Shown here piece after piece: positions 1 to 8,000 of a stretch of 8,000 nucleotides of DNA. A model generated the notes under the pieces. The model was not told the origin of the DNA, did not search any database, and saw nothing but the letters and a program-made list of their open reading frames with translations. The position numbers and the translations under genes were made by a program. Where the stretch lies: IMG/VR virus record IMGVR_UViG_3300008807_000528, positions 1-8,000 of that record. The stretch is one strand, 5' to 3'. Numbering within the stretch: position 1 is the first letter of the stretch; the number at the start of each line of letters is the position of its first letter. The DNA comes from a virus.

Positions 1-99
1 GTAACTGGGATCGATGGCCGCGAACATCTGGACCTGCAGGGGCAAGTTCGTGATGACCTTGCGGCCTTTTTTGAGCGCATCGAGCACGTGATACACGAC
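1..99. repeat. Terminal redundancy, copy 1 (identical to 7902-8000)
   Basis: Direct base-by-base comparison shows 99/99 identity at an offset of 7,901 nt. Confidence 0.97.
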
Positions 100-150
100 C
101 GCTTCATAACTCTTGCCAGAGCCGGGGATTCCTTCCAGTCCGTTGATCAT
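1..150 (-). CDS. Zot/pI-like assembly ATPase, N-terminal 50 codons (partial; this is the wrap-around continuation of 6675-8000)
   Basis: ATG at 150-148 overlaps the upstream TGA (149-147) as ATGA. The translation is MINGLEGIPGSGKSYEAVVYHVLDALKKGRKVITN..., with Walker A GIPGSGKS. It is in frame with the ORF that runs off the window at 8000. Confidence 0.85.
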   Translation of the reverse strand, partial: MINGLEGIPGSGKSYEAVVYHVLDALKKGRKVITNLPLQVQMFAAIDPSY

Positions 151-485
151 GATCCCAACCTTGTGAAGGGGATGAGCTGAAGCACAAGCCGGATACCGAT
201 GGCGGTCACGATGATCACAGACGCTTCACCGACGCCGAGCAGGCCAAGCACGTTGATCAACTCTGCAGGCAAGGTGCCCCAGGTGTTGGCGTAGGCGTTG
301 ATGCCGCTCAGATCGATGGCAGAGATTGCAGCAACGGCAATGTCCATGACCTGTTCGAAGGGCCAGCAGAAGGCATCGCGGATGAAGTCCCATGCGGCTT
401 GGAAAACGGCCACCATGAGTTGGCCGAACCACTGGGCCAGGGCGACGAACTTGCCGAGGATGGCGCTGATGAAATCACCGAGCAT
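147..485 (-). CDS. pVI-like hydrophobic minor virion/membrane protein (112 aa)
   Basis: The ORF sits between the pIII-like and pI-like genes, as gene VI does in Ff phages. It is very hydrophobic, with several putative TM segments. One nt separates it from the upstream stop, and its stop overlaps the Zot start as ATGA. Confidence 0.6.
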   Translation of the reverse strand: MLGDFISAILGKFVALAQWFGQLMVAVFQAAWDFIRDAFCWPFEQVMDIAVAAISAIDLSGINAYANTWGTLPAELINVLGLLGVGEASVIIVTAIGIRLVLQLIPFTRLGS

Positions 486-486
486 G

Positions 487-1929
487 TCAGCCCCCGAAAA
501 TCATGCGGCGCGCGGCCATGAGCGCGGTAATGATCAGGATGGCCTTTGCAACGTCCCACACCCAGCATGGCGGGGCGATTTCGTGCGTGCCAAGGTCTGC
601 CCAGGCGGGGCCTAGCGACAGGTCAAGCGTCCACGATGGACAAGTGCCGGAGGTCAGGTGCGTTGGCATCATCTGGCCGAGCGACGTCACCATGCTTGTC
701 TGCGCAATAGCGGCGGTTTTGGTCTGCCAAATGCCTACAAGCCCATCCGGATACTTGCGCGTATATAGCTCCGGAATGGGGGGCATGCTGGGGTCGGTGA
801 TGGTGCCCACGGGCTGGCACATGGCAGCATTTGGGTTATGGGCGCACACATCGGGCGTGGAAGGGGTTGCAGTGCCAGGAATGGGCGTGCTGGGGTTCGT
901 TGGCGTGGCCGGGTTGCCGGTGGTCACGGATGTACTGGTGATCGTGACGCCGTAGGGGTTGGCGGCATCATTTGTGGGGGTGATGGTCCACGTAGGTTGT
1001 GTGTACTGCTGGGGCGACGTGTTGGGGACTGGCACCGCCTCGCCAGTCACGGTAAGCGGACGGCTTGGCAGCGTTGGCGCGGGGTTGCTCACACCGATTG
1101 GCAAGTCCTGGGAGCCGGTCTGATCTGGCGGATTGATCGCCGGCACTGGATCAACAGGTATGGGCTTGCCCATCTGCTCAAGCAGCTTTGGATTGACCGG
1201 GATGGAAGCGAGTTGCTGAGCGAGTTGCTCCCACTGGTCAGCAGTGGGCTTGCTAGGTGGCGTACCAGCAAGCGGAATGGCACCATTAGCATCGAGGCAC
1301 CAGCCGGTGACCAAGCTGCCAATTGAGTTGTGCAAGGAGTAGTAGGTGCGGTTGTTATTGCAGCTACTGGCATTTGGAGTGGCGCGGGCGGTGCACCCGT
1401 TGGTACCGCAGGCACCAGGGAGCCAGTCGTTGTACATGGCCTTTGCCTGCGCAACCGTTTCGCCTGTGGAGAGCTTTGTAGCGTTCTCGTCAAAGCCATT
1501 TCCAGCGATGGCCTTGCGCTCAATGGTGTCCGTTGCAGGGTTGTATTCAAAGTCGGTGGCTTTGCCCTGCGCGTGGGCAGCATCGAGCCACTCTTTTGCA
1601 TAGTAGCCAGCGGTACCGAGAGCGAGGCCGCCGAGCACCAACGGCGCAATCGTGGCAGTGGCAGTGGCAGCGACTGCAGCGCCTGCAGCAACGCGCCATC
1701 CAACATTGATAGCGACAGCGCCGCCAAACTCGGCAATGTACACAGACGCAGTGCCGAGAACGTAGCCAGCGCGGGCTATGCCGGCAGCCACGCGAACACC
1801 ATTGACTGTCTGCACGGCCTGACCTGCAGCAGGGGTGAGAACAGCAGCGGTGGCGTACGCATAGTTGATGGACAGCAGGCCCAGTCCAAGGGCTGCAAGC
1901 GCGTTGCGCGCGATGGGTGCGACTCGCAT
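487..1929 (-). CDS. pIII-like adsorption / minor coat protein (480 aa from ATG 1929)
   Basis: It is the largest structural ORF and follows the coat gene. It has a signal-peptide-like N-terminus (MRVAPIARNALAALGLGLLSINYAYA), a long Pro/Thr-rich linker, Cys pairs, and a C-terminal membrane anchor (WDVAKAILIITALMAARRMIFGG). I prefer ATG 1929 because it overlaps the upstream small-ORF stop as TAATG. The 503-aa ORF-track start at 1998 lies inside that small ORF. Confidence 0.7.
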   Translation of the reverse strand: MRVAPIARNALAALGLGLLSINYAYATAAVLTPAAGQAVQTVNGVRVAAGIARAGYVLGTASVYIAEFGGAVAINVGWRVAAGAAVAATATATIAPLVLGGLALGTAGYYAKEWLDAAHAQGKATDFEYNPATDTIERKAIAGNGFDENATKLSTGETVAQAKAMYNDWLPGACGTNGCTARATPNASSCNNNRTYYSLHNSIGSLVTGWCLDANGAIPLAGTPPSKPTADQWEQLAQQLASIPVNPKLLEQMGKPIPVDPVPAINPPDQTGSQDLPIGVSNPAPTLPSRPLTVTGEAVPVPNTSPQQYTQPTWTITPTNDAANPYGVTITSTSVTTGNPATPTNPSTPIPGTATPSTPDVCAHNPNAAMCQPVGTITDPSMPPIPELYTRKYPDGLVGIWQTKTAAIAQTSMVTSLGQMMPTHLTSGTCPSWTLDLSLGPAWADLGTHEIAPPCWVWDVAKAILIITALMAARRMIFGG

Positions 1930-2027
1930 TAAATCCCCCTGAGTCCGAACAGAAATGAGACGGCGCCCAGGCCGCCAAGGAGGGCAACAATTGCCCAAAC
2001 GAGAGCGAGCTGAGCGCCGATGGCCAT
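1929..2027 (-). CDS. 32-aa hydrophobic peptide, possible pVII/pIX-like minor coat protein
   Basis: Hand translation gives MAIGAQLALVWAIVALLGGLGAVSFLFGLRGI. It starts 9 nt after the coat gene stop, and its TAA overlaps the pIII-like ATG. It consists of a single TM-like segment. It is too short for the ORF track. Confidence 0.45.
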   Translation of the reverse strand: MAIGAQLALVWAIVALLGGLGAVSFLFGLRGI

Positions 2028-2036
2028 GGCTGCGCC

Positions 2037-2270
2037 TTAGATCTTGCGGATCACGCGCTTGCCCAGGTCAGGACCCTTGAACACCAGGGCAATGCCGACG
2101 ATTGCCAGGGCGATGACGCCCAGGGCTGCAGAGATGCCGGTGATGTCGATGCTGTCCAGAACGTCCAGCAGGGGGTTGTCGCCGGCTGCAGCGTGGGCCG
2201 ATGCGGCCAGCATGCCGGTAGCGGCCACCAGGGCCAGATTGCGGGTCTTGTTGAATGCGGTCTTGAACAT
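2037..2270 (-). CDS. Major coat protein (pVIII-like, 77-aa precursor)
   Basis: A signal peptide ends in AHA (MFKTAFNKTRNLALVAATGMLAASAHA). The mature N-terminus is acidic (AAGDNPLLDVLDSID), followed by a hydrophobic helix and a basic C-terminus (KGPDLGKRVIRKI). A good RBS, AAGGAAAGAACC, precedes the ATG. Confidence 0.8.
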   Translation of the reverse strand: MFKTAFNKTRNLALVAATGMLAASAHAAAGDNPLLDVLDSIDITGISAALGVIALAIVGIALVFKGPDLGKRVIRKI

Positions 2271-2348
2271 GGTTCTTTCCTTTGAAGTTAAGGTTTCGGT
2301 GGCGAGGAATCGACACCGCGAAGCCCTTGCAGGCTTGACGCTGGCGAC

Positions 2349-2672
2349 TCAGATTTTTTTAACGATGCCCTTTGCGATGCCCGCAGCCCAACCGGCGAAG
2401 TACGCGCCGAAGACGAGCGCGGCGCCCATGCTTCCAACGAGAACGATGCTTTCGGGGGTGATGCCGAGTTGCTCAAGATCGAGCGTGAACTCAGGGGGCG
2501 TGTTGACCTCCTCGACGGTCATGAGGAGGTGCGTGCCAACGGGACAGGCGTACTGGTCGCCGGTCTTCATGGCTTCGCCAGTAACCCAAGGAAGCATGTA
2601 AGCCCCAGTAGGGTGGACAGCCAGCCCCGGGCCGCCAGGGGTTGAGAACGAAAGGACAATGCAGGTAGCCAT
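2349..2672 (-). CDS. 107-aa hypothetical protein with a C-terminal TM helix and a coat-like basic tail
   Basis: The ORF starts 3 nt after the upstream stop. Its C-terminus, IVLVGSMGAALVFGAYFAGWAAGIAKGIVKKI, resembles the coat protein's TM segment plus basic tail. Function is unknown. Confidence 0.6.
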   Translation of the reverse strand: MATCIVLSFSTPGGPGLAVHPTGAYMLPWVTGEAMKTGDQYACPVGTHLLMTVEEVNTPPEFTLDLEQLGITPESIVLVGSMGAALVFGAYFAGWAAGIAKGIVKKI

Positions 2673-2675
2673 TAC

Positions 2676-2807
2676 TCAGCCCTGCCAATCGTCAACGGGT
2701 GAGCGTTCGCCGCACTCTGGACACTCGGGGTGTGAGCTATCGTCCAGCTCATCGCAAGGCACAGAAGCGCCACAAACAGGGCAAGTGTTTTCGGGTTCAT
2801 CGCTCAT
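2676..2807 (-). CDS. 43-aa zinc-ribbon-like protein (CPxC...CPxC)
   Basis: Hand translation gives MSDEPENTCPVCGASVPCDELDDSSHPECPECGERSPVDDWQG. It exactly fills the gap between flanking genes: the ATG is 3 nt after the upstream TGA and the stop is 3 nt before the next ATG. It is not in the ORF track because of its length. Confidence 0.5.
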   Translation of the reverse strand: MSDEPENTCPVCGASVPCDELDDSSHPECPECGERSPVDDWQG

Positions 2808-2810
2808 GGC

Positions 2811-3005
2811 TCAGTGCAGTTCATCGAGGTTGACCACCAGAGGCCGGTGGAATGGTTCGGTGTGATCTTCGATCAGCTGGGCGCAGCTTTCGAGGTCTTC
2901 GACCACACCGGCTTCGCGTAGCAACATGACCCACTCCGGTTGCCCATCCTCAAAGGACGGGGCCAGGAACTGGCCTGTTGTGCCGGACTGGATCACGAAG
3001 CGCAT
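2811..3005 (-). CDS. 64-aa hypothetical acidic protein
   Basis: ATG at 3005-3003 overlaps the upstream TGA by 1 nt (TGATG). There are no hydrophobic segments and no family that I recognise. Confidence 0.55.
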   Translation of the reverse strand: MRFVIQSGTTGQFLAPSFEDGQPEWVMLLREAGVVEDLESCAQLIEDHTEPFHRPLVVNLDELH

Positions 3006-3328
3006 CACGCGGCCTTACGTTCGGGGGCAGCGGGCTTGATCGCCAGCAGGGTCACCTTGCTGGTGTTGTCGGCACCGGCCACGATGTCGAATTCGCAATC
3101 GCAGACGACGCCCGTGACGGGCCAAGACGCCTTGAGGTGCGCCCACTTGTCGAACTCGGCAGAGGTGCCGCACTTGAAGGGGCGGGTGACGACGCCGATG
3201 CTCTGGCCGTTGCTGGACTCGCCCAGGTCCACCGACAGGTGGAACGTGGTGGAGTCGTAGCCACGGCCTTCCATTTCGCCTTTGCTGGACTTGATACCGT
3301 GCAGCACGGCCTTGTTTTGAAATCGCAT
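3005..3328 (-). CDS. Putative ssDNA-binding protein (gene V / RstB position), 107 aa
   Basis: It lies immediately downstream of rep, has a typical size, is soluble, and is preceded by the RBS AAGGAAACACACC. The call rests on position and size only. Confidence 0.55.
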   Translation of the reverse strand: MRFQNKAVLHGIKSSKGEMEGRGYDSTTFHLSVDLGESSNGQSIGVVTRPFKCGTSAEFDKWAHLKASWPVTGVVCDCEFDIVAGADNTSKVTLLAIKPAAPERKAA

Positions 3329-3349
3329 GGTGTGTTTCCTTTTGCGGCC

Positions 3350-4570
3350 TTAGATGGGCTGGAGTCCGACACGGCCATAGCCGGAGCCCGTTGAACGTTT
3401 GAAGGCGCCTTGGTACGCGCGCTGGATTTCGTTGGTGGTGAACTTCTGCAAGCGGCCCGGGGCCTTCTGGTTGCTCACCAGTTCGATGAACTCATCGGCA
3501 CCGAGGAACTGGAAGGCGAGGGCGAGAGAAGGGGCGGCGGTATCGCGAAGCCACTGCACGTTTCGCTTGACTTCGGCGAGGATGGTTTCGACGGAGAGGC
3601 GTGGCTTTGTGGGCACAGGTTCGGGCACAAAAGAGCCTTCCGCCTCGCGAAGGATGGAGGCATGCCAGTCGCTGGCACCGGCAAAGAAATCGGCAGGGCG
3701 GCGGAGCATGTCGGCACCGAGGACGCGCAGCTTGTTGCCGTAACGAAGCTCAGCGCGGAGCCATTGGCTTTCATCCTTCGGGCCGAACAGCTGGATGCCT
3801 TTTTCGTACACGTTGGTTTGCTTGCCGGCTTCCTTCGATCCGAAGTAGAAGGACCGGCCCTTGCCGCCCCGAGCGTTGCACCAGTCACCGACCTGATTAC
3901 AGCTTGGGCGGTTGCTGTGGTGGTCCATCAGCCCGGCCTTGTAGTCCTCGACAACGCGCTCCATTCCGCCTCGCATGCCGTCGAAGAAATCGAGCGCCAG
4001 ATCCACGCGGGTAAGCTTGGCATCGGTGCGCTCGACGATGGCGGCAAGGCGGTCGTTAAAGCCGTGGTGTGCGAAGGTGCACGCGGTGCCGTAGAGGTTG
4101 CAGTGAATGGTGTTGGCCTGCGCCTGTTGGCGTGGGCTTTCACCGCTGGAAAGGAAGCCCACCCAACCGCATTCCACATCGTTGCGCACGATGGACCAGC
4201 GGAAGCGATAGAAGTCATGGCCCTTGCGCAGTTCGGGATAGACGCTGAAATCGGGGCCGAGAGCTGCGCATGCCTGTTCGGCGAGGGTCTTGGCTTGGGC
4301 CGAGGCTGAGAACTCGCCATCGGGCATGTCCCGGAGCAGCTTGGCGAGACGGGCATAGCGGTCCAGGTGCATGGCTTCATCGGACCACCGGGCACCATCG
4401 TGCAAGGGGAACAGATCATCGACCGTTGGCACTGGCGCGTTGCGCAGTGCGACGGAGAAGCGAACCCAGTCGATATGCACCAGGGTGTTGGACTTAAGGC
4501 GTTCGGCCTTGAGGCGCAATTTCACCTCGCTGCCATCGAGCACCAAGTCCGATTGCTTTGCACGGGTCAT
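3350..4570 (-). CDS. Rolling-circle replication initiator, Rep_trans-type (RstA / pT181 RepC-like), 406 aa
   Basis: Motifs read by eye are LTRVDLALDFFDG, SFYFGSKEAGKQTNVYEKG and WLRAELRYGNK. They match the R.D.a.D / Y.Gs....r.YeK / R.E.r pattern I associate with replication initiation factor (Rep_trans) proteins of filamentous phages and RCR plasmids. The start overlaps the upstream stop as ATGA. Confidence 0.85.
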   Translation of the reverse strand: MTRAKQSDLVLDGSEVKLRLKAERLKSNTLVHIDWVRFSVALRNAPVPTVDDLFPLHDGARWSDEAMHLDRYARLAKLLRDMPDGEFSASAQAKTLAEQACAALGPDFSVYPELRKGHDFYRFRWSIVRNDVECGWVGFLSSGESPRQQAQANTIHCNLYGTACTFAHHGFNDRLAAIVERTDAKLTRVDLALDFFDGMRGGMERVVEDYKAGLMDHHSNRPSCNQVGDWCNARGGKGRSFYFGSKEAGKQTNVYEKGIQLFGPKDESQWLRAELRYGNKLRVLGADMLRRPADFFAGASDWHASILREAEGSFVPEPVPTKPRLSVETILAEVKRNVQWLRDTAAPSLALAFQFLGADEFIELVSNQKAPGRLQKFTTNEIQRAYQGAFKRSTGSGYGRVGLQPI

Positions 4571-5400
4571 GCTTGCTCCAAGGACAGGGTCTCCCCGTGA
4601 TTACCATCGGGGAGCATCGACAGCCGCGCTTCGCGCCCGGCCACTTCCCCGCGAGGCGGGGCCCCTTCTGCCGGGCGCTGCGCTTCCAGTGCCCATTGCT
4701 TGAACGCTGCACGCTTTGAGGCCGCGCGTTTGGGCGCAGCCAGGTCGGTGTAACTGCGGTCCTGGCCAGCTGTAACAGCGAGCCGGCGCACTTGGCACTT
4801 GGCGGCCAGGGCAACGAGGAAGCGAGCGAAGGCCGGCGGCGTGGCCTCGCGTTCGGCAGGGGACAGCTTCATGGTGCGGCCCGCAGCTCGGTGTAACTGG
4901 ACTGGCAGTTCGCCGAGGTCTTCGCGGCTGCAGCCGACGATGTAGAGGTATGTAGGCTTGGGTGCAGGATGGCCCCACCAGCCCTGATCGACCAGCAGGG
5001 TCCAGCCGCCGAAGGCATCGACCTTGCCGGGGTGTGGCAGGTCGGCGGCATGCCACAGGGTGCTGCCCCATGGGTGTTCCAGCACACCGCCAACGCGGCG
5101 GATCTGTTCGACAGCGAACAGGGCCAGGGCCTTTTCGTCGGGGCGTGGTTTTGCGAAGTGGCGCAGGCGGCCCCAGCCACGGCAGGGCGGATGGCACACG
5201 ACTGGATTGCTGCCGGTGTAGCCGCGTGCATCGCGCTTGGCGTCCCACACGTCATCCACCAGGTCGAAGTAACAGGAATCGGAGCGGGCGAAGAGGACGG
5301 ACACCGCAGTTCGCTGTAACAGCGGACCAGGGCGCTGAGGCCATGTGAGCCATGCGCCGGACTGGCCTTCGATTGCTGGGGGTGTGACGCTGGAGAGCAT
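4567..5400 (-). CDS. 277-aa protein of unknown function; first gene of the replication operon, with a PPC-containing motif series
   Basis: It is a long ORF in the operon orientation, and its stop is coupled to the rep ATG as ATGA. Motifs are VLFARSDS, VVCHPPCRGWGRL, VLEHPWGS and DQGWWGHPAPKPTYLYIVG. No strong RBS precedes ATG 5400, so the exact start is uncertain. Confidence 0.7.
   Translation of the reverse strand: MLSSVTPPAIEGQSGAWLTWPQRPGPLLQRTAVSVLFARSDSCYFDLVDDVWDAKRDARGYTGSNPVVCHPPCRGWGRLRHFAKPRPDEKALALFAVEQIRRVGGVLEHPWGSTLWHAADLPHPGKVDAFGGWTLLVDQGWWGHPAPKPTYLYIVGCSREDLGELPVQLHRAAGRTMKLSPAEREATPPAFARFLVALAAKCQVRRLAVTAGQDRSYTDLAAPKRAASKRAAFKQWALEAQRPAEGAPPRGEVAGREARLSMLPDGNHGETLSLEQA
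4748..4778 (+). repeat. Bipartite site GTGTAACTG-N13-CTGTAACAG (copy A, inside the 277-aa CDS)
   Basis: GTGTAACTG is at 4748-4756 and CTGTAACAG at 4770-4778. The same two 9-mers with the same 13-nt spacing recur at 6537-6567. Confidence 0.85.
4891..4899 (+). repeat. GTGTAACTG motif copy
   Basis: Exact 9-mer in the same orientation as the other copies. Confidence 0.8.
5314..5322 (+). repeat. CTGTAACAG motif copy (within GCTGTAACAGC); a partial copy AGTAACAG lies at 5268-5275
   Basis: Exact 9-mer. The 11-nt odd palindrome GCTGT-A-ACAGC also occurs at 4769-4779 and 6558-6568. Confidence 0.8.
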
Positions 5401-5517
5401 GCGGTGTACAGTCCGGTTACGTAGCCAAAACTTGTACGTAGTGACTTCTTACTACGTTGGGCCGCATAGTAGTGGAAATTCACTACGTCCTGAAACCGCT
5501 CGAAACAGGAGCTTTCG
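5401..5517. promoter_or_regulatory. Divergent control region with repeated ACGTAGTG / CACTACGT operator-like half-sites
   Basis: This is a 117-nt gap between the divergently transcribed 277-aa gene and the repressor-like gene. One inverted repeat is ACGTAGT-N8-ACTACGT (5436-5457) and another is GTAGTG-N6-CACTAC (5469-5486). An extra TACGTAG sits at 5418-5424. The RBS AGGAG (5507-5511) precedes ATG 5518. A possible plus-strand promoter is GTGACT (5441-5446) with CATAGT (5465-5470) at 18-nt spacing. Confidence 0.6.
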
Positions 5518-5952
5518 ATGAACCACCTTGAAGAACTGAACGCCCTTATTGACAAGGCCGCAGAAAAGGCAGGCAGCGATTACAAGCTCGCTGCAATGCT
5601 TGGAATGCAGCGTCAAAAGATCAGCAACATGCGGCACGGTCGCATGACGGCAACGCCAGAGGATCAGGCGCTATTCGCCTCTGTTGCTGGATTGAATGCT
5701 ATTGAAGTGCTAGCACGCGCAATGGTGCAGAAGCACGAAGGAACCCCAAAAGGCGACAGGTTGATGCGTGCCCTGGGAAAGGGTTTGCTAGCGACTGGCG
5801 CGGCAGTCGCTACCGCTGGAGCAAACGCAGCGGCGATCTTTTCATCGATCCACCCGGCTAAAACCGTTGTTGACTTGATACGATGTATAAAATTGTTAAA
5901 TCCGTTTGGACTTGTCAATAGTGAAATAATATCGAAAAAGGCCCCTGTCTAG
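5518..5952 (+). CDS. HTH (Cro/CI-type) repressor-like regulator, 144 aa
   Basis: It is the only plus-strand gene and is divergent from the replication operon, as rstR is in CTX-type phages. An HTH-like segment reads DYKLAAMLGMQRQKISNMRHGR. It has a good RBS. The C-terminal part contains an Ala/Gly-rich hydrophobic stretch, and the last ~25 codons fall in an AT-rich island. Confidence 0.75.
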   Translation: MNHLEELNALIDKAAEKAGSDYKLAAMLGMQRQKISNMRHGRMTATPEDQALFASVAGLNAIEVLARAMVQKHEGTPKGDRLMRALGKGLLATGAAVATAGANAAAIFSSIHPAKTVVDLIRCIKLLNPFGLVNSEIISKKAPV

Positions 5953-5963
5953 GGGCCTTTTTT
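5935..5963. terminator. Bidirectional rho-independent terminator T1 (AGGCCCCT-GTCT-AGGGGCCT flanked by A5 and T6)
   Basis: An 8-bp GC-rich stem (5939-5946 with 5951-5958) and a 4-nt loop are followed by a T-run on the plus strand and preceded by an A-run. It lies between the convergent repressor gene (its stop, 5950-5952, is inside the hairpin) and the 80-aa ORF. Confidence 0.75.
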
Positions 5964-5977
5964 CATACAGAGCCGTT

Positions 5978-6220
5978 CTACCTAGCGCGATTGCTTCTGT
6001 CCTGTTGCGGCTGAACAGATAGAGATGGCGGTGAGGAAGGGCGCTGCTGTTGAATCGCCTGAGCTGCAGCGTTGCTACTGGCAACCTCTAGACGGTGCGA
6101 AATGAGGGCCTCGTAACCAAAAAACAGCATGGTGCCGCCGAGGAAAATACCCAACGCCAGCTTCACCACATCAACGAGAAAAAACCAGGTGCTATCGGGC
6201 CGGTAGATGATTCGGTGCAT
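5978..6220 (-). CDS. 80-aa single-pass membrane protein, candidate accessory (moron) gene
   Basis: ATG at 6220 is preceded by a strong RBS, AGGAGGAAGGGGC. The sequence MHRIIYRPDSTWFFLVDVVKLALGIFLGGTMLFFGYEALI... has one TM segment and a Gln/Ser/Pro-rich tail. The 117-aa ORF-track version would start inside or upstream of terminator T2, so I reject it. Confidence 0.55.
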   Translation of the reverse strand: MHRIIYRPDSTWFFLVDVVKLALGIFLGGTMLFFGYEALISHRLEVASSNAAAQAIQQQRPSSPPSLSVQPQQDRSNRAR

Positions 6221-6260
6221 GCCCCTTCCTCCTTTTGGCAAGCACGATAGCAGCAAAAAC

Positions 6261-6285
6261 AAAGGCCCCGAGCAGGGGCCTTTTT
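6261..6285 (-). terminator. Rho-independent terminator T2 ending the long minus-strand operon (also has a T-run on the plus strand)
   Basis: AAAGGCCCC (6261-6269) pairs with GGGGCCTTT (6275-6283) around the loop GAGCA. On the minus strand the hairpin is followed by TTTGTTTTTG. The stem sequence is nearly identical to that of T1. Confidence 0.65.
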
Positions 6286-6339
6286 CATTGGGGTGAGCAT
6301 CGAGGGCATAACACCGGCCCGGATAGAACAACAGTTGAC

Positions 6340-6356
6340 ATGGGGCGTCGCCCCAT
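6340..6356. other. 17-nt odd palindrome ATGGGGCG-T-CGCCCCAT, a potential ssDNA hairpin in the noncoding region
   Basis: The palindrome is perfect around the central T. It sits in the 125-nt noncoding stretch 6286-6410, next to a C4/C4/C4 tract (6351-6366). Confidence 0.5.
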
Positions 6357-6410
6357 ACCCCACCCCACCACTACGACACAAGGTCTCCGTTCCAGGGGAC
6401 CCCTTGCCGA

Positions 6411-6509
6411 TCAGTCAAAAGGGTTGCGGACCTTGCGCCAAAGGTAGCCGCCGAACGCACCAAGAACCACCGCGACAGCGCAGCTTGCCAACATTTCAAA
6501 CAGGTCCAT
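6411..6509 (-). CDS. 32-aa hydrophobic peptide (hypothetical)
   Basis: Hand translation gives MDLFEMLASCAVAVVLGAFGGYLWRKVRNPFD. The RBS GGAG lies 5 nt upstream of the ATG. It has one TM-like segment and is the last ORF before terminator T2. Confidence 0.4.
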   Translation of the reverse strand: MDLFEMLASCAVAVVLGAFGGYLWRKVRNPFD

Positions 6510-6536
6510 GAGCGCTCCAGTGCAACAGCCAGATGA

Positions 6537-6594
6537 GTGTAACTGAGCACCGCGGCCGCTGTAACAGCAGACGTGGCGCAGCTGGGTGTAACTG
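6537..6594 (+). repeat. Intergenic triple-motif cluster: GTGTAACTG-N13-CTGTAACAG-N18-GTGTAACTG
   Basis: The motifs lie at 6537-6545, 6559-6567 and 6586-6594, inside the 88-nt gap between two micro-ORFs. This is copy B of the bipartite site seen at 4748-4778. Confidence 0.85.
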
Positions 6595-6597
6595 AAC

Positions 6598-6678
6598 TCA
6601 CAGACCGATGAACCGAAGAACCTTGCGCACGATGGAGCGCACCACGGTGTTGACGATGGTGCGCCAAAGGTACTTCAT
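6598..6678 (-). CDS. 26-aa basic amphipathic peptide (hypothetical), translationally coupled to zot
   Basis: ATG 6678-6676 overlaps the Zot TGA (6677-6675) as ATGA. The peptide is MKYLWRTIVNTVVRSIVRKVLRFIGL. Evidence beyond the coupling is weak. Confidence 0.3.
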   Translation of the reverse strand: MKYLWRTIVNTVVRSIVRKVLRFIGL

Positions 6679-8000
6679 TGCAGGTTGCCCCGGCCACCGG
6701 CATAGGAGGGGTTTTTGAGGCGCAGCGCAGCAGTGAGGTCTGCAGGCGATATCTGGCCCTCTTGCGGCCGCTGAAACTCGGGCATGGGAACGGTGCGCGC
6801 TGGTGCTGCAGCGGCGCCATGGCCCTGGCGATCGCGGCCCACTTCGACCACGATAGGCTTGTCTGCGGACCACTGGGCCATGGCAGGGGCATCACAGGTG
6901 ATGGCGCGCGGCTTGCCTTCCCATCGGAGGGTGCCGGCGCAGTCGGTGAGGGGTTGCCACACGTAGCCCATCTTTTGGAGGTCGCGGCTGTCCATCGTGC
7001 TCACGCGCTGGTTACTGTTGCTGATGGTGAACGTGTACACGTCCTGGCCCCGAAAGGTAATGCGGCCAGTCAGGTGCATGGTCTTGCCGGCGTAGGGCTC
7101 AGGCGTAGCGTTTGGATCGGGCTCAGAGGGCCTTTGCACAGGTGAGGGTGCCGTGCCATTGGCCAACTGGTTTGCAGGGATTGGAGAGGCGACAGGCGGG
7201 GTTGCTGGGGCCGTTGCCTTGCTCACCTTTGCCGATGGTGCAGGCTTGGGCTTTTTAGCCTTGTCGGAGGGCCAGAGGTACCAGACGGCTGCAGCGGCAG
7301 TGAGGCCCCACCAGATCCAGGTGAAACGCCGAAATTTGACGATAAAGGGGGTAACGTCCGATGCGGCCGATTCGGCCACGCTGTTGCCTTGCGTGTGGCT
7401 TTTGTAGAGCTGGAAATACTGGGGTTTGTAGGGGCGCTCCTCTTCGCTGATGACGGCCCCTCGGTAGCCCGCATGGACCTTGCGGATGTAGCAGCCCTTT
7501 TTGCCGAGGATGTCCGCTTTTCGGCAGCGGATCAGCATGGCGATGAGGCGGGCGATGGGCTGGTTCATGTCCCGGAAACTCTGGGTCATGAGCAGCACAT
7601 CGGCGTTGAAGTGGCGGTGCAGCTTGAACCACTCCACCACCTGTTTATCGGTGCCCTGCTGAGGGATGGGCACGTGGCATTCGTCGATGACGAAGAGAGG
7701 TCCCTGACCGGTGTAAGGGTGCTTCCAGTCGCTGAGGTAGTCCCACACATGGCCGAACACCGATACGCCTTCGCCGGGCTGTTCTTTGCGGCCATCTTCA
7801 AACAGGGTGACAGCTTGACCGTTGCCCTTGTCGTCGACGGCTGCGGCGTTCCAGACGCCAAGCACTGGGCGAGGCTTCACCAGCACTTCAACCAGGTCGG
7901 TGTAACTGGGATCGATGGCCGCGAACATCTGGACCTGCAGGGGCAAGTTCGTGATGACCTTGCGGCCTTTTTTGAGCGCATCGAGCACGTGATACACGAC
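6675..8000 (-). CDS. Zot/pI-like assembly ATPase (5' end runs off the window; the full gene is 458 aa once 1-150 is joined)
   Basis: It has Walker B-like LFVIDECH and a central TM segment, FTWIWWGLTAAAAVWYLW, followed by a Pro/Ala-rich periplasmic domain. The Walker A motif lies in the wrap-around part (1-150). The ORF-track start at 7997 is an internal GTG (Val19). Confidence 0.9.
   Translation of the reverse strand, partial: VVYHVLDALKKGRKVITNLPLQVQMFAAIDPSYTDLVEVLVKPRPVLGVWNAAAVDDKGNGQAVTLFEDGRKEQPGEGVSVFGHVWDYLSDWKHPYTGQGPLFVIDECHVPIPQQGTDKQVVEWFKLHRHFNADVLLMTQSFRDMNQPIARLIAMLIRCRKADILGKKGCYIRKVHAGYRGAVISEEERPYKPQYFQLYKSHTQGNSVAESAASDVTPFIVKFRRFTWIWWGLTAAAAVWYLWPSDKAKKPKPAPSAKVSKATAPATPPVASPIPANQLANGTAPSPVQRPSEPDPNATPEPYAGKTMHLTGRITFRGQDVYTFTISNSNQRVSTMDSRDLQKMGYVWQPLTDCAGTLRWEGKPRAITCDAPAMAQWSADKPIVVEVGRDRQGHGAAAAPARTVPMPEFQRPQEGQISPADLTAALRLKNPSYAGGRGNLQ
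7900..7908 (+). repeat. GTGTAACTG motif copy (within the 17-mer CCAGGTCGGTGTAACTG, 7892-7908); its last 7 nt recur at 1-7
   Basis: Exact 9-mer. The 17-mer is identical to 4740-4756. Confidence 0.8.
7902..8000. repeat. Terminal redundancy, copy 2 (identical to 1-99)
   Basis: Direct base-by-base comparison shows 99/99 identity at an offset of 7,901 nt. Confidence 0.97.

Follow-up and report, generated by a model that had tools for sequence, protein, structure and literature searches.

ORF277 is a 277-residue protein encoded in the window, an 8,000-nucleotide stretch of viral DNA (positions 1 to 8,000 of IMG/VR record IMGVR_UViG_3300008807_000528). Its conserved core of approximately 170 residues is probably a cut-down descendant of the catalytic domain of a C5-cytosine DNA methyltransferase. 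Our leading explanation, which we hold tentatively, is that ORF277 is a methyltransferase-derived DNA enzyme that uses a cysteine nucleophile and has a vestigial site for S-adenosylmethionine (SAM), and that GTTACA repeats found in one clade of phages are its predicted cis sites. Besides ORF277 and rep, the gene for a rolling-circle initiator, the window encodes a Zot-like protein (pI), major and minor coat proteins, and a divergent helix-turn-helix (HTH) regulator, and this gene set identifies the phage as an inovirus. The ends of the window repeat exactly over 99 nucleotides (1-99 and 7902-8000), so the window represents a complete circular genome of 7,901 nucleotides.

ORF277 belongs to PHROG 12600, a family of 'unknown function', to which it is linked by a full-domain profile match (Table 1) and by shared invariant residues. 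The family is large, phage-restricted and unnamed. It comprises 2,006 clusters at 50% identity (E <= 1e-3) and more than 2,100 proteins in a 90%-clustered collection, with matches on at least 593 IMG/VR contigs and in only 14 records of GenBank phages; a tblastn search of 72,556 plasmids gave no match. Among the 120 family matches listed, every one with a source name is called hypothetical. An earlier reading of the window from its letters alone (the sequence-only reading) allowed that ORF277 might simply represent an uncharacterised family common in phages, which these counts bear out. The same reading called the protein unusual cargo for an inovirus, which does not hold because the family is common in phages, including microviruses and P2-like, Mu-like and lambdoid phages.

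Sequence searches relate ORF277 to no named family. Pfam and NCBIfam gave nothing even at E <= 1, PADLOC gave no match, and the PDB gave nothing meaningful by sequence or by profile. The sole PDB profile match, to a phycobilisome linker (E 0.033), falls in the low-complexity tail and was dismissed. Nor does ORF277 appear to be a Dam-like (D12-class) N6-adenine methyltransferase, as it has neither the DPPY form of motif IV nor a match to PF02086; the PF02086 matches of two family proteins, P0173 and P0194, are to fused N-terminal halves. The conserved part of ORF277 comprises residues 33-205, and the N-terminal 32 residues and the basic tail beyond residue 205 vary even among close relatives.

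Two AlphaFold2 models were made, one of the full protein with 36 homologs (pLDDT 79) and one of the core alone with 84 diverse homologs. The 173-residue core model (pLDDT 96.6, pTM 0.92) is a compact alpha/beta domain. With both models, the top 50 Foldseek matches in the PDB are almost exclusively C5-cytosine DNA methyltransferases (PF00145), including DNMT1, DNMT3B, ZMET2, M.HaeIII (prob 0.99, TM 0.44) and M.HhaI. Dam chains occur at low rank, three in the first search and one in the second, and a single DNMT2 chain is at rank 47 of the first. Apart from this DNMT2 chain, neither RNA methyltransferases nor thymidylate synthases are among the matches of either search. In BFVD, named viral cytosine methyltransferases match from E 5.6e-4, and an unnamed 210-residue viral protein matches at 2.7e-7. 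The modeled core has the fold of a class I (Rossmann-like) methyltransferase catalytic domain, with weak scores and with one edge strand apparently missing, and the kinship that it suggests with the C5 methyltransferases is remote. The methyltransferase-like fold that was proposed from sequence is supported by these structure searches, which revealed no confident unrelated family, but the proposal found no match in Pfam or in sequence and profile searches of the PDB.

The weak E-values and TM-scores, and the lack of a significant sequence-profile link in this analysis, are what would be expected if a generic Rossmann-like fold with an unrelated function resembled the methyltransferases by convergence or chance. 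We consider this highly improbable. The PDB holds many Rossmann-like folds, yet C5 methyltransferases account for nearly all of the top 50 matches in both searches, and BFVD gives the same result. Moreover, the segments with the Pro-Cys, helix D, the Glu and motif VIII follow the same linear order as the invariant positions of the family, and published HHpred results for a homolog, Gp8 of the microvirus Ebor, provide independent support.

The catalytic cysteine of C5 methyltransferases and a putative counterpart of their catalytic glutamate are kept throughout the family, as counted in approximately 150 diverse members. All peptides quoted in the sequence-only reading are present in ORF277 in the order given there (VSVLFARSDSCY, residues 33-44; NPVVCHPPCRGWGRL, 65-79; ALALFAVEQIRRV, 91-103; GGVLEHPWGS, 104-113; and LLVDQGWWGHPAPKPTYLYIVG, 135-156), and its observation that the Pro-Cys and the Glu are kept extends to the whole family. 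The Pro-Cys nucleophile of motif IV corresponds to His70-Pro-Pro-Cys73, which follows strand 4 and is invariant (149/149). For profile-profile comparison by hhalign, the M.HhaI sequence was checked against the PDB, and 120 close and 80 diverse viral C5 methyltransferases were gathered. In the alignment with the broader profile, which is marginal, Cys73 lies opposite Cys81, the catalytic cysteine of M.HhaI, and helix D and motif VIII are collinear. Glu108 (150/150), followed by His109 (148/150), is at the end of a strand comprising residues 105-110, after the equivalent of helix D. Because hhalign shifted this segment, we infer from position in the model that Glu108 is equivalent to the Glu of the Glu-Asn-Val (ENV) sequence in motif VI. 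Arg56-Asp57-Ala58, His109-Pro110, Ser113, Asp128, Gln139, Gly143-His144, Lys148, Thr150, Tyr153, Arg184 and Thr187-Pro188 are nearly invariant, and more than 10 polar residues besides HPPC and Glu108 are invariant.

In contrast, the cofactor motifs appear to be lost. Motif I, whose F-x-G-x-G loop binds SAM, is the best-conserved motif of real methyltransferases. At this position the family has the pattern L-F-x-x-x-x-S-x-Y, with free variation at the four middle residues. GxG is found in none of 143 members, and 125 of them lack glycine altogether. The replacement of the glycine-rich loop, recognised earlier in ORF277, is therefore a family-wide property, and from these sequences SAM binding has presumably been lost in the PHROG 12600 family. 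Conservation of Cys43, in the 'SDSCY' segment to which the sequence-only reading drew attention, is confined to the closest clade; other members mostly have Ile. A zinc or thiol role for this residue was rejected because its conservation is limited to genes in which a DNA repeat includes its codon.

Motif VIII is remodeled. Its Q-x-R-x-R arginines are replaced, as had been noted, by Pro149 and Tyr151 in ORF277, and mostly by Trp or other residues family-wide. However, D-Q-G-W-W-G-H, the segment previously assigned to this motif, is not its best counterpart. In every profile and HMM comparison with C5 methyltransferases, the top local segment is instead G143 to G156, in which GHPAPKPTYLYIVG aligns with GIPQKRERIYMICF. 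A few family members keep QKRTR, which is near to QxRxR (FGH-AQKRTR-LYIVG, compared with the methyltransferase consensus FG-vPQkReR-iyivG).

Other parts of the methyltransferase domain are also missing. Approximately 33 residues separate strand 1 from strand 4 in the family, compared with approximately 60 in the established structural layout of M.HhaI, and the core model has six strands, one fewer than M.HhaI. According to the model, edge strand 3 and motif III are the likeliest elements to have been lost. Only approximately 50 residues with two short helices follow strand 7, so ORF277 has no target-recognition domain and no motif IX or X, and many family members stop near the end of the core (163-200 residues). 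The sequence-only reading had likewise seen no obvious target-recognition domain, and no further domain follows the end of the core near residue 205. The C-terminal third is basic and rich in Ala, Arg and Lys, as also described there (residues 186-277; pI 10.2; 21 Ala, 10 Arg and 4 Lys). Because ORF277 differs from C5 methyltransferases in motif I, in the motif VIII arginines, in the target-recognition domain with motifs IX and X, and in profile matches, it is not classified as a member of that family.

Gp8 of the Rhodobacter microvirus Ebor is a true member of the ORF277 family, with 41% identity over 94% of the core and the same invariant residues, and its gene is also directly upstream of a rolling-circle initiator. 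It differs from ORF277 in being only 163 residues long, without the N- and C-terminal extensions, and in lacking GTTAC repeats. Gp8 is annotated as a 'putative DNA methylase' based on HHpred (E 2.3e-8, residues 37-160), and the activity is described as putative (mBio 2025, PMC11980548). CmoX, a phage DNA cytosine C5-carboxymethyltransferase (Nat Commun 2025, PMC12783734), is a full-length enzyme whose solved structure has carboxy-SAM bound and which needs CmoA as a partner (PMC12783734). CmoX thus demonstrates that phage homologs of C5 methyltransferases can change chemistry, and by analogy the ORF277 family may be another case. The two also resemble each other in the nucleophile loop (Ser-Pro-Pro-Cys in CmoX, His-Pro-Pro-Cys in ORF277) and in having ParB-type neighbour genes, ParBc genes being frequent beside CmoX. 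However, full length, carboxy-SAM binding and CmoA dependence are not features of ORF277.

A contrasting case is DNMT3L, a catalytically dead methyltransferase paralog that has lost its catalytic motifs. Like DNMT3L, the ORF277 family has a methyltransferase fold and has lost part of the motif set, but the pattern is reversed, as the catalytic Cys and Glu are kept and the cofactor motifs are lost.

Alternately, ORF277 might be a genuine but minimal SAM-dependent orphan C5-cytosine methyltransferase, which would methylate the phage replicative form soon after entry to protect it from host restriction and would use a non-canonical SAM site. The C5-methyltransferase-like fold with invariant Pro-Cys and Glu fits this possibility, as do the Leu-Phe of motif I (Phe37 in ORF277) and the acidic residue after strand 2 (Asp53, 82% conserved), both of which are kept. 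Fusions to Dam-like domains and the association with ParB are typical of phage methylases, for example the ParBc genes beside CmoX, and methylase genes are also among the neighbours of family genes. The published annotation of Ebor Gp8 and its proposed anti-defence role also agree with this possibility. Even so, we regard a minimal methylase as somewhat unlikely: GxG is absent from all 143 members in a loop that is variable here but is the most conserved part of real methyltransferases; motif III with strand 3, motifs IX and X, and the target-recognition domain are missing; and the domain has no match to PF00145 or PADLOC methylases, whereas the fused Dam halves do match. In Ebor DNA, 5-methylcytosine (5mC) calls reach only 1.58%, and the authors could assign them neither to Gp8 nor to host methylases (PMC11980548).

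In the explanation that we favour, a C5-methyltransferase-derived enzyme with a vestigial SAM site, ORF277 would retain strands 1 and 2, strand 4 with its Pro-Cys loop, helix D, strand 5 ending in Glu108, and strands 6 and 7 with a remodeled motif VIII of the form G-x-x-x-x-K/R-x-x followed by hydrophobic residues. It would have lost the glycine-rich motif I, the strand 3/motif III segment, the target-recognition domain, and motifs IX and X. The protein would be the first product of the early operon, and its translation would be coupled to that of the rolling-circle initiator. It would bind DNA and flip out a pyrimidine, whereupon Cys73 would attack C6 and Glu108 would protonate N3, as in C5 methyltransferases. 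Because the canonical SAM pocket appears to be vestigial, we propose that the product is not ordinary 5-methylcytosine. The base might instead be modified in another way, deaminated or exchanged, or the protein might remain bound to DNA, covalently or tightly. In the inovirus lineage with arrays, DNA-selected GTTACA repeats, on the same strand in the gene and in one intergenic spacer, would be the candidate cis target.

A more specific proposal is that the family represents a new class of SAM-independent, C5-methyltransferase-derived enzymes, in which the Cys/Glu pair and new invariant His, Lys and Arg residues carry out a non-methylation reaction on a flipped-out pyrimidine, perhaps deamination, the formation of another adduct at C5, or deliberate covalent linkage of the protein to DNA. 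Such enzymes would serve replication or genome protection in single-stranded DNA (ssDNA) and rolling-circle phages, and would act at the GTTACA repeats of their own genes in the inovirus clade. We consider this proposal unlikely as a whole.

The same cysteine chemistry might also be directed at a substrate other than DNA, such as free pyrimidine nucleotides, RNA or tRNA. Attack of a cysteine on C6 of a pyrimidine is shared with RNA m5C and m5U methyltransferases and with thymidylate-synthase-type enzymes. ORF277 has no recognisable DNA-recognition domain, and MazG and NADAR genes, which belong to nucleotide metabolism, are among the neighbours of the family. However, the Foldseek matches are to DNA C5 methyltransferases, with the DNMT2 chain at rank 47 as the only RNA methyltransferase, and the fusion partners (Dam, ParB and HTH) are directed at DNA, so a non-DNA substrate is very doubtful.

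The ORF277 gene is overprinted with direct repeats. TGTAAC (GTTACA in the sense of the gene) occurs eight times on the plus strand of the window and is absent from the minus strand; 1.36 copies are expected, and eight copies were reached in 0 of 200 shuffles. The extended motif in gene sense is CWGTTACAsCGAsCTGG. Four exact copies and an AGTAAC variant are within ORF277, three are in an intergenic cluster (Table 1), and one is at position 7901 in pI. The sequence-only reading had assigned most copies of the motif family to this gene, which is correct for the extended motif (5 of 9 copies), whereas the gene has about half of the exact copies.

Similar arrays of six to eight copies, in equivalent places, are present in the ORF277 homologs of five other phages (loci L001, L002, L004, L005 and L007). 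Together with the window phage, these make six array-bearing phages, which range from 46% to 64% GC and have three different Rep families. Each of the six genes has five to eight copies of GTTAC, compared with approximately 0.5 expected, and the copies use all three reading frames. When codons in the six genes were shuffled synonymously, the observed 39 copies of GTTAC compared with 11.1 expected (z 10.9), and the 29 copies of GTTACA with 5.1 (z 12.9). The excess of GTTACA survives synonymous-codon shuffling, and therefore the motif is selected at the DNA level. Conservation of Cys43-Tyr44 (TGT-TAC) and 'VQLHRA' in the array clade only is explained by this selection. Of all their proteins, the six phages share the family protein alone, and the GTTACA repeats in its gene and in the spacer are the best candidates for its predicted cis target.

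A second array occurs in a lineage independent of the inovirus GTTACA array. P0258, a protein with a fused HTH domain, is encoded on a 30-kb phage contig (locus L084), and its gene contains five copies of CTGGTAACC and one inverted copy (GGTTACC). All are at positions 8134-8365 of the locus, the five with spacings of 36, 45, 45 and 45 nucleotides, in DNA that codes for the linker between the HTH and methyltransferase-like domains. Elsewhere in the 17-kb locus, there is no GGTAAC.

Cis sites located inside the gene of the protein that uses them are known from the origin iterons in gene O of lambda and from pac sites in small-terminase genes. The likeness concerns the repeats only, which are regularly spaced direct repeats in DNA coding for a variable linker or tail within a replication module. 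The ORF277 repeats differ in that the ORF277 protein is a candidate binder and three Rep families accompany the array. Because the same array is found beside all three, the repeats are unlikely to be Rep-binding iterons. They are also unlikely to be operators of a repressor, as no HTH regulator is common to the six array-bearing phages and a separate inverted repeat in the promoter region is a likelier operator. A scan of family genes rejected the idea that every one of them has an array.

The repeats are also compatible with a DNA-binding protein that has a methyltransferase scaffold but no catalytic activity, and that would bind them and regulate rep or copy number, perhaps as a roadblock upstream of rep, or would organise an origin or partition site. 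Such a binder would fit the same-strand arrays within genes, their spacing of 22 nucleotides here or 45 nucleotides in L084, their selection at the DNA level, and the status of the family protein as the sole protein common to the array-bearing phages. The HTH and ParB_N fusions and the translational coupling to rep would fit as well. However, Cys73, Glu108 and many polar residues are absolutely conserved in approximately 150 diverse members, which points to catalysis, and most members, including those of microviruses and of inovirus fSU1, lack the array. An inert binder is therefore quite unlikely.

A different sequence, GACCTGG (which contains CCWGG), is 4.7 times denser on the sense strand of family genes than in their flanks (loci L001-L083 and L170-L172). 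It occurs in differing reading frames, and all three copies in the Ebor genome are inside the family gene. The family-wide enrichment of GACCTGG/CCWGG was not outstanding when codons were shuffled in genes from outside the close inovirus clade, and the density may reflect composition or shared ancestry.

The genomic context of the family was surveyed in the best 80 IMG/VR loci of at least 593 contigs; most of these 80 loci are 30-60 kb phage contigs. The family spans inoviruses, microviruses, and P2-like, Mu-like and lambdoid phages. Its neighbours are mixed early-region genes, including genes of replication and recombination (RecT, YqaJ, NinG, NinB and integrases) and of DNA modification (N6_N4 methylases, Mom, PAPS reductase and QueC), as well as Tad2-like, NADAR and MazG genes. 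BLAST clustering of neighbours found no recurrent cluster beyond one closely related group of loci. Family domains are fused to complete Dam-like methyltransferases (P0173 and P0194), ParB_N (P0123) and an HTH domain (P0258). In Mu-like Casadabanvirus phages, represented by Pseudomonas phage Meltemi (L173, 4992-5588) and phage Persinger (L174, 3024-4594), a homolog is directly upstream of the large terminase gene. The Persinger homolog, for which RefSeq has little annotation, comes directly after a ParB-like gene.

A recurrent arrangement is a family gene followed by a rolling-circle initiator gene, often with overlapping stop and start codons. In the window, the rep start codon at 4570 is 4 nucleotides before the ORF277 stop, which creates the ATGA overlap (4567-4570) that the sequence-only reading had described. 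The downstream initiator is Rep_trans in the window, L004, L009 and L023, REP_ORF2-G2P in L001, L005 and L007, and Phage_CRI/G2P in L002 and L016; RepSA and P2 GPA are also found. In the microviruses Ebor and Tortoise microvirus 37, the corresponding initiators are VP4/A proteins, and in Xanthomonas inovirus fSU1 a Rep gene is downstream. With crude ORF calling, a rolling-circle initiator is a neighbour at approximately one fifth of the IMG/VR loci. A serine recombinase (Resolvase) gene is at the prophage end in four of the six array-bearing inoviruses (L001, 13504-14067; L002, 8696-9301; L005; and L007); the window phage and L004 have none.

Several points weigh against the favoured explanation of a methyltransferase-derived enzyme with a vestigial SAM site and, in one clade, cis sites in its own gene. 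The structural matches are weak, as the best PDB E-value is 2.6e-3, none is below 1e-3, TM-scores are 0.3-0.44, and rmsd values are 5-8 A. The order of the strands, the geometry of the pocket and the way in which Glu108 superposes on ENV at the residue level are predictions. ORF277 has no match to PF00145. By hhalign, the family is not significantly similar to M.HhaI alone or to a narrow M.HhaI-like profile, and its alignment with the broader profile of 81 viral C5 methyltransferases has P 0.04 and a probability of 1.3%. HMM-to-sequence comparisons with C5 methyltransferases are not significant (E >= 0.09), and neither Pfam, hhalign nor HMM comparison places ORF277 in the profile of that family. 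Very short active viral C5 methyltransferases exist, and, given that Phe37 and Asp53 are retained, a non-canonical SAM site is conceivable from the sequence. The arrays are absent from most other family members, including Ebor, fSU1 and tailed phages, so the array is unnecessary for the general function of the family protein. Adjacency to Rep in tiny ssDNA phages may merely reflect a single early operon.

Table 1. Features of the window discussed in the text (amino acids, aa; nucleotides, nt)
Feature	Position	Strand	Remarks
rep	3350-4570	minus	Rep_trans rolling-circle initiator; Pfam E 1.9e-23, phrog_453 E 2.2e-64
ORF277	4567-5400	minus	277 aa, ATG start; first gene of the early/replication operon; PHROG 12600 E 3.4e-59
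Variable basic Ala/Arg-rich tail, residues 206-277	4567-4785	minus	Low model confidence; DNA carries the 3' GTTACA repeat cluster
Two 16-nt repeats	4741-4779	plus	TGTAAC at 4749 and 4771, 22 nt apart, in tail-coding DNA
Conserved core domain, residues 33-205	4786-5304	minus	Predicted alpha/beta fold like the C5-cytosine DNA methyltransferase catalytic domain (AlphaFold2, Foldseek PDB and BFVD)
16-nt repeat copy	4884-4899	plus	TGTAAC at 4892; encodes 'VQLHRA'
Remodeled motif VIII and strand 7, G143-H-P-A-P-K148-P-T150-Y-L-Y153-I-V-G156	4933-4974	minus	Best local segment in profile/HMM comparisons
Glu108-His-Pro, end of strand 5	5071-5079	minus	Proposed counterpart of motif VI (Glu-Asn-Val)
His70-Pro-Pro-Cys73	5182-5193	minus	Motif IV counterpart (Pro-Cys nucleophile)
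Two repeat copies	5260-5322	plus	AGTAAC at 5268, coding for Cys43-Tyr44; TGTAAC at 5315, coding for Leu-Leu-Gln just ahead of the core
Degenerate motif I position, L36-F-A-R-S-D-S-C-Y44	5269-5295	minus	Strand 1, then a glycine-free loop that varies family-wide
Inverted repeat, operator candidate	5436-5488		20 nt, 80% complementary, 13-nt spacer; between ORF277 and the HTH regulator gene
HTH regulator gene, divergently transcribed	5518-5952	plus	phrog_638 E 2.6e-13
Intergenic cluster of three TGTAAC	6538-6592	plus	Spacing 22 and 27 nt; downstream of the Zot-like gene (pI)

The inverted repeat located between the divergently oriented ORF277 and HTH regulator genes is likely an operator. A promoter scan of this control region found no sigma-70 consensus promoter. 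Two tiny ORFs follow the Zot-like gene on the minus strand, within 6411-6678. The first (6598-6678) encodes 26 residues that are basic and hydrophobic, and has an ATGA overlap with the pI stop; the second (6411-6509) encodes 32 hydrophobic residues. The three intergenic GTTACA copies are between these two ORFs, and a strong hairpin is located beyond them (6337-6359). A 43-residue zinc-ribbon ORF (2676-2807, minus strand) has a weak match to a Lar-like restriction-alleviation PHROG (E 0.0023), and a Lar_restr_allev gene is also close to the HTH-fusion homolog in L086. A megablast comparison of the window with GenBank phages gave no match.

The label 'putative methylase' is already in print for one homolog, Ebor Gp8. 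The loss of cofactor motifs across a family that retains the catalytic residues, the recurrent pairing with rolling-circle initiators, and the overprinted repeat arrays appear to be new. The family accounts for approximately 2,000 clusters of a phage-only protein that has no family name and whose chemistry is still putative. Phage genomes as small as 4.8-8 kb carry the gene, and therefore it must pay its way. The GTTACA arrays, which extend over three reading frames, are a clear cis element overprinted on coding sequence, and they offer a concrete oligonucleotide substrate (CAGTTACACCGACCTGG) for probing the ORF277 protein. As a methyltransferase, ORF277 would rank among the smallest known, with a new mode of SAM binding. 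If it is not one, the cysteine-addition chemistry of C5 methyltransferases would have been reused without SAM, a reaction that, to our knowledge, has so far been only an in vitro side reaction of these enzymes.

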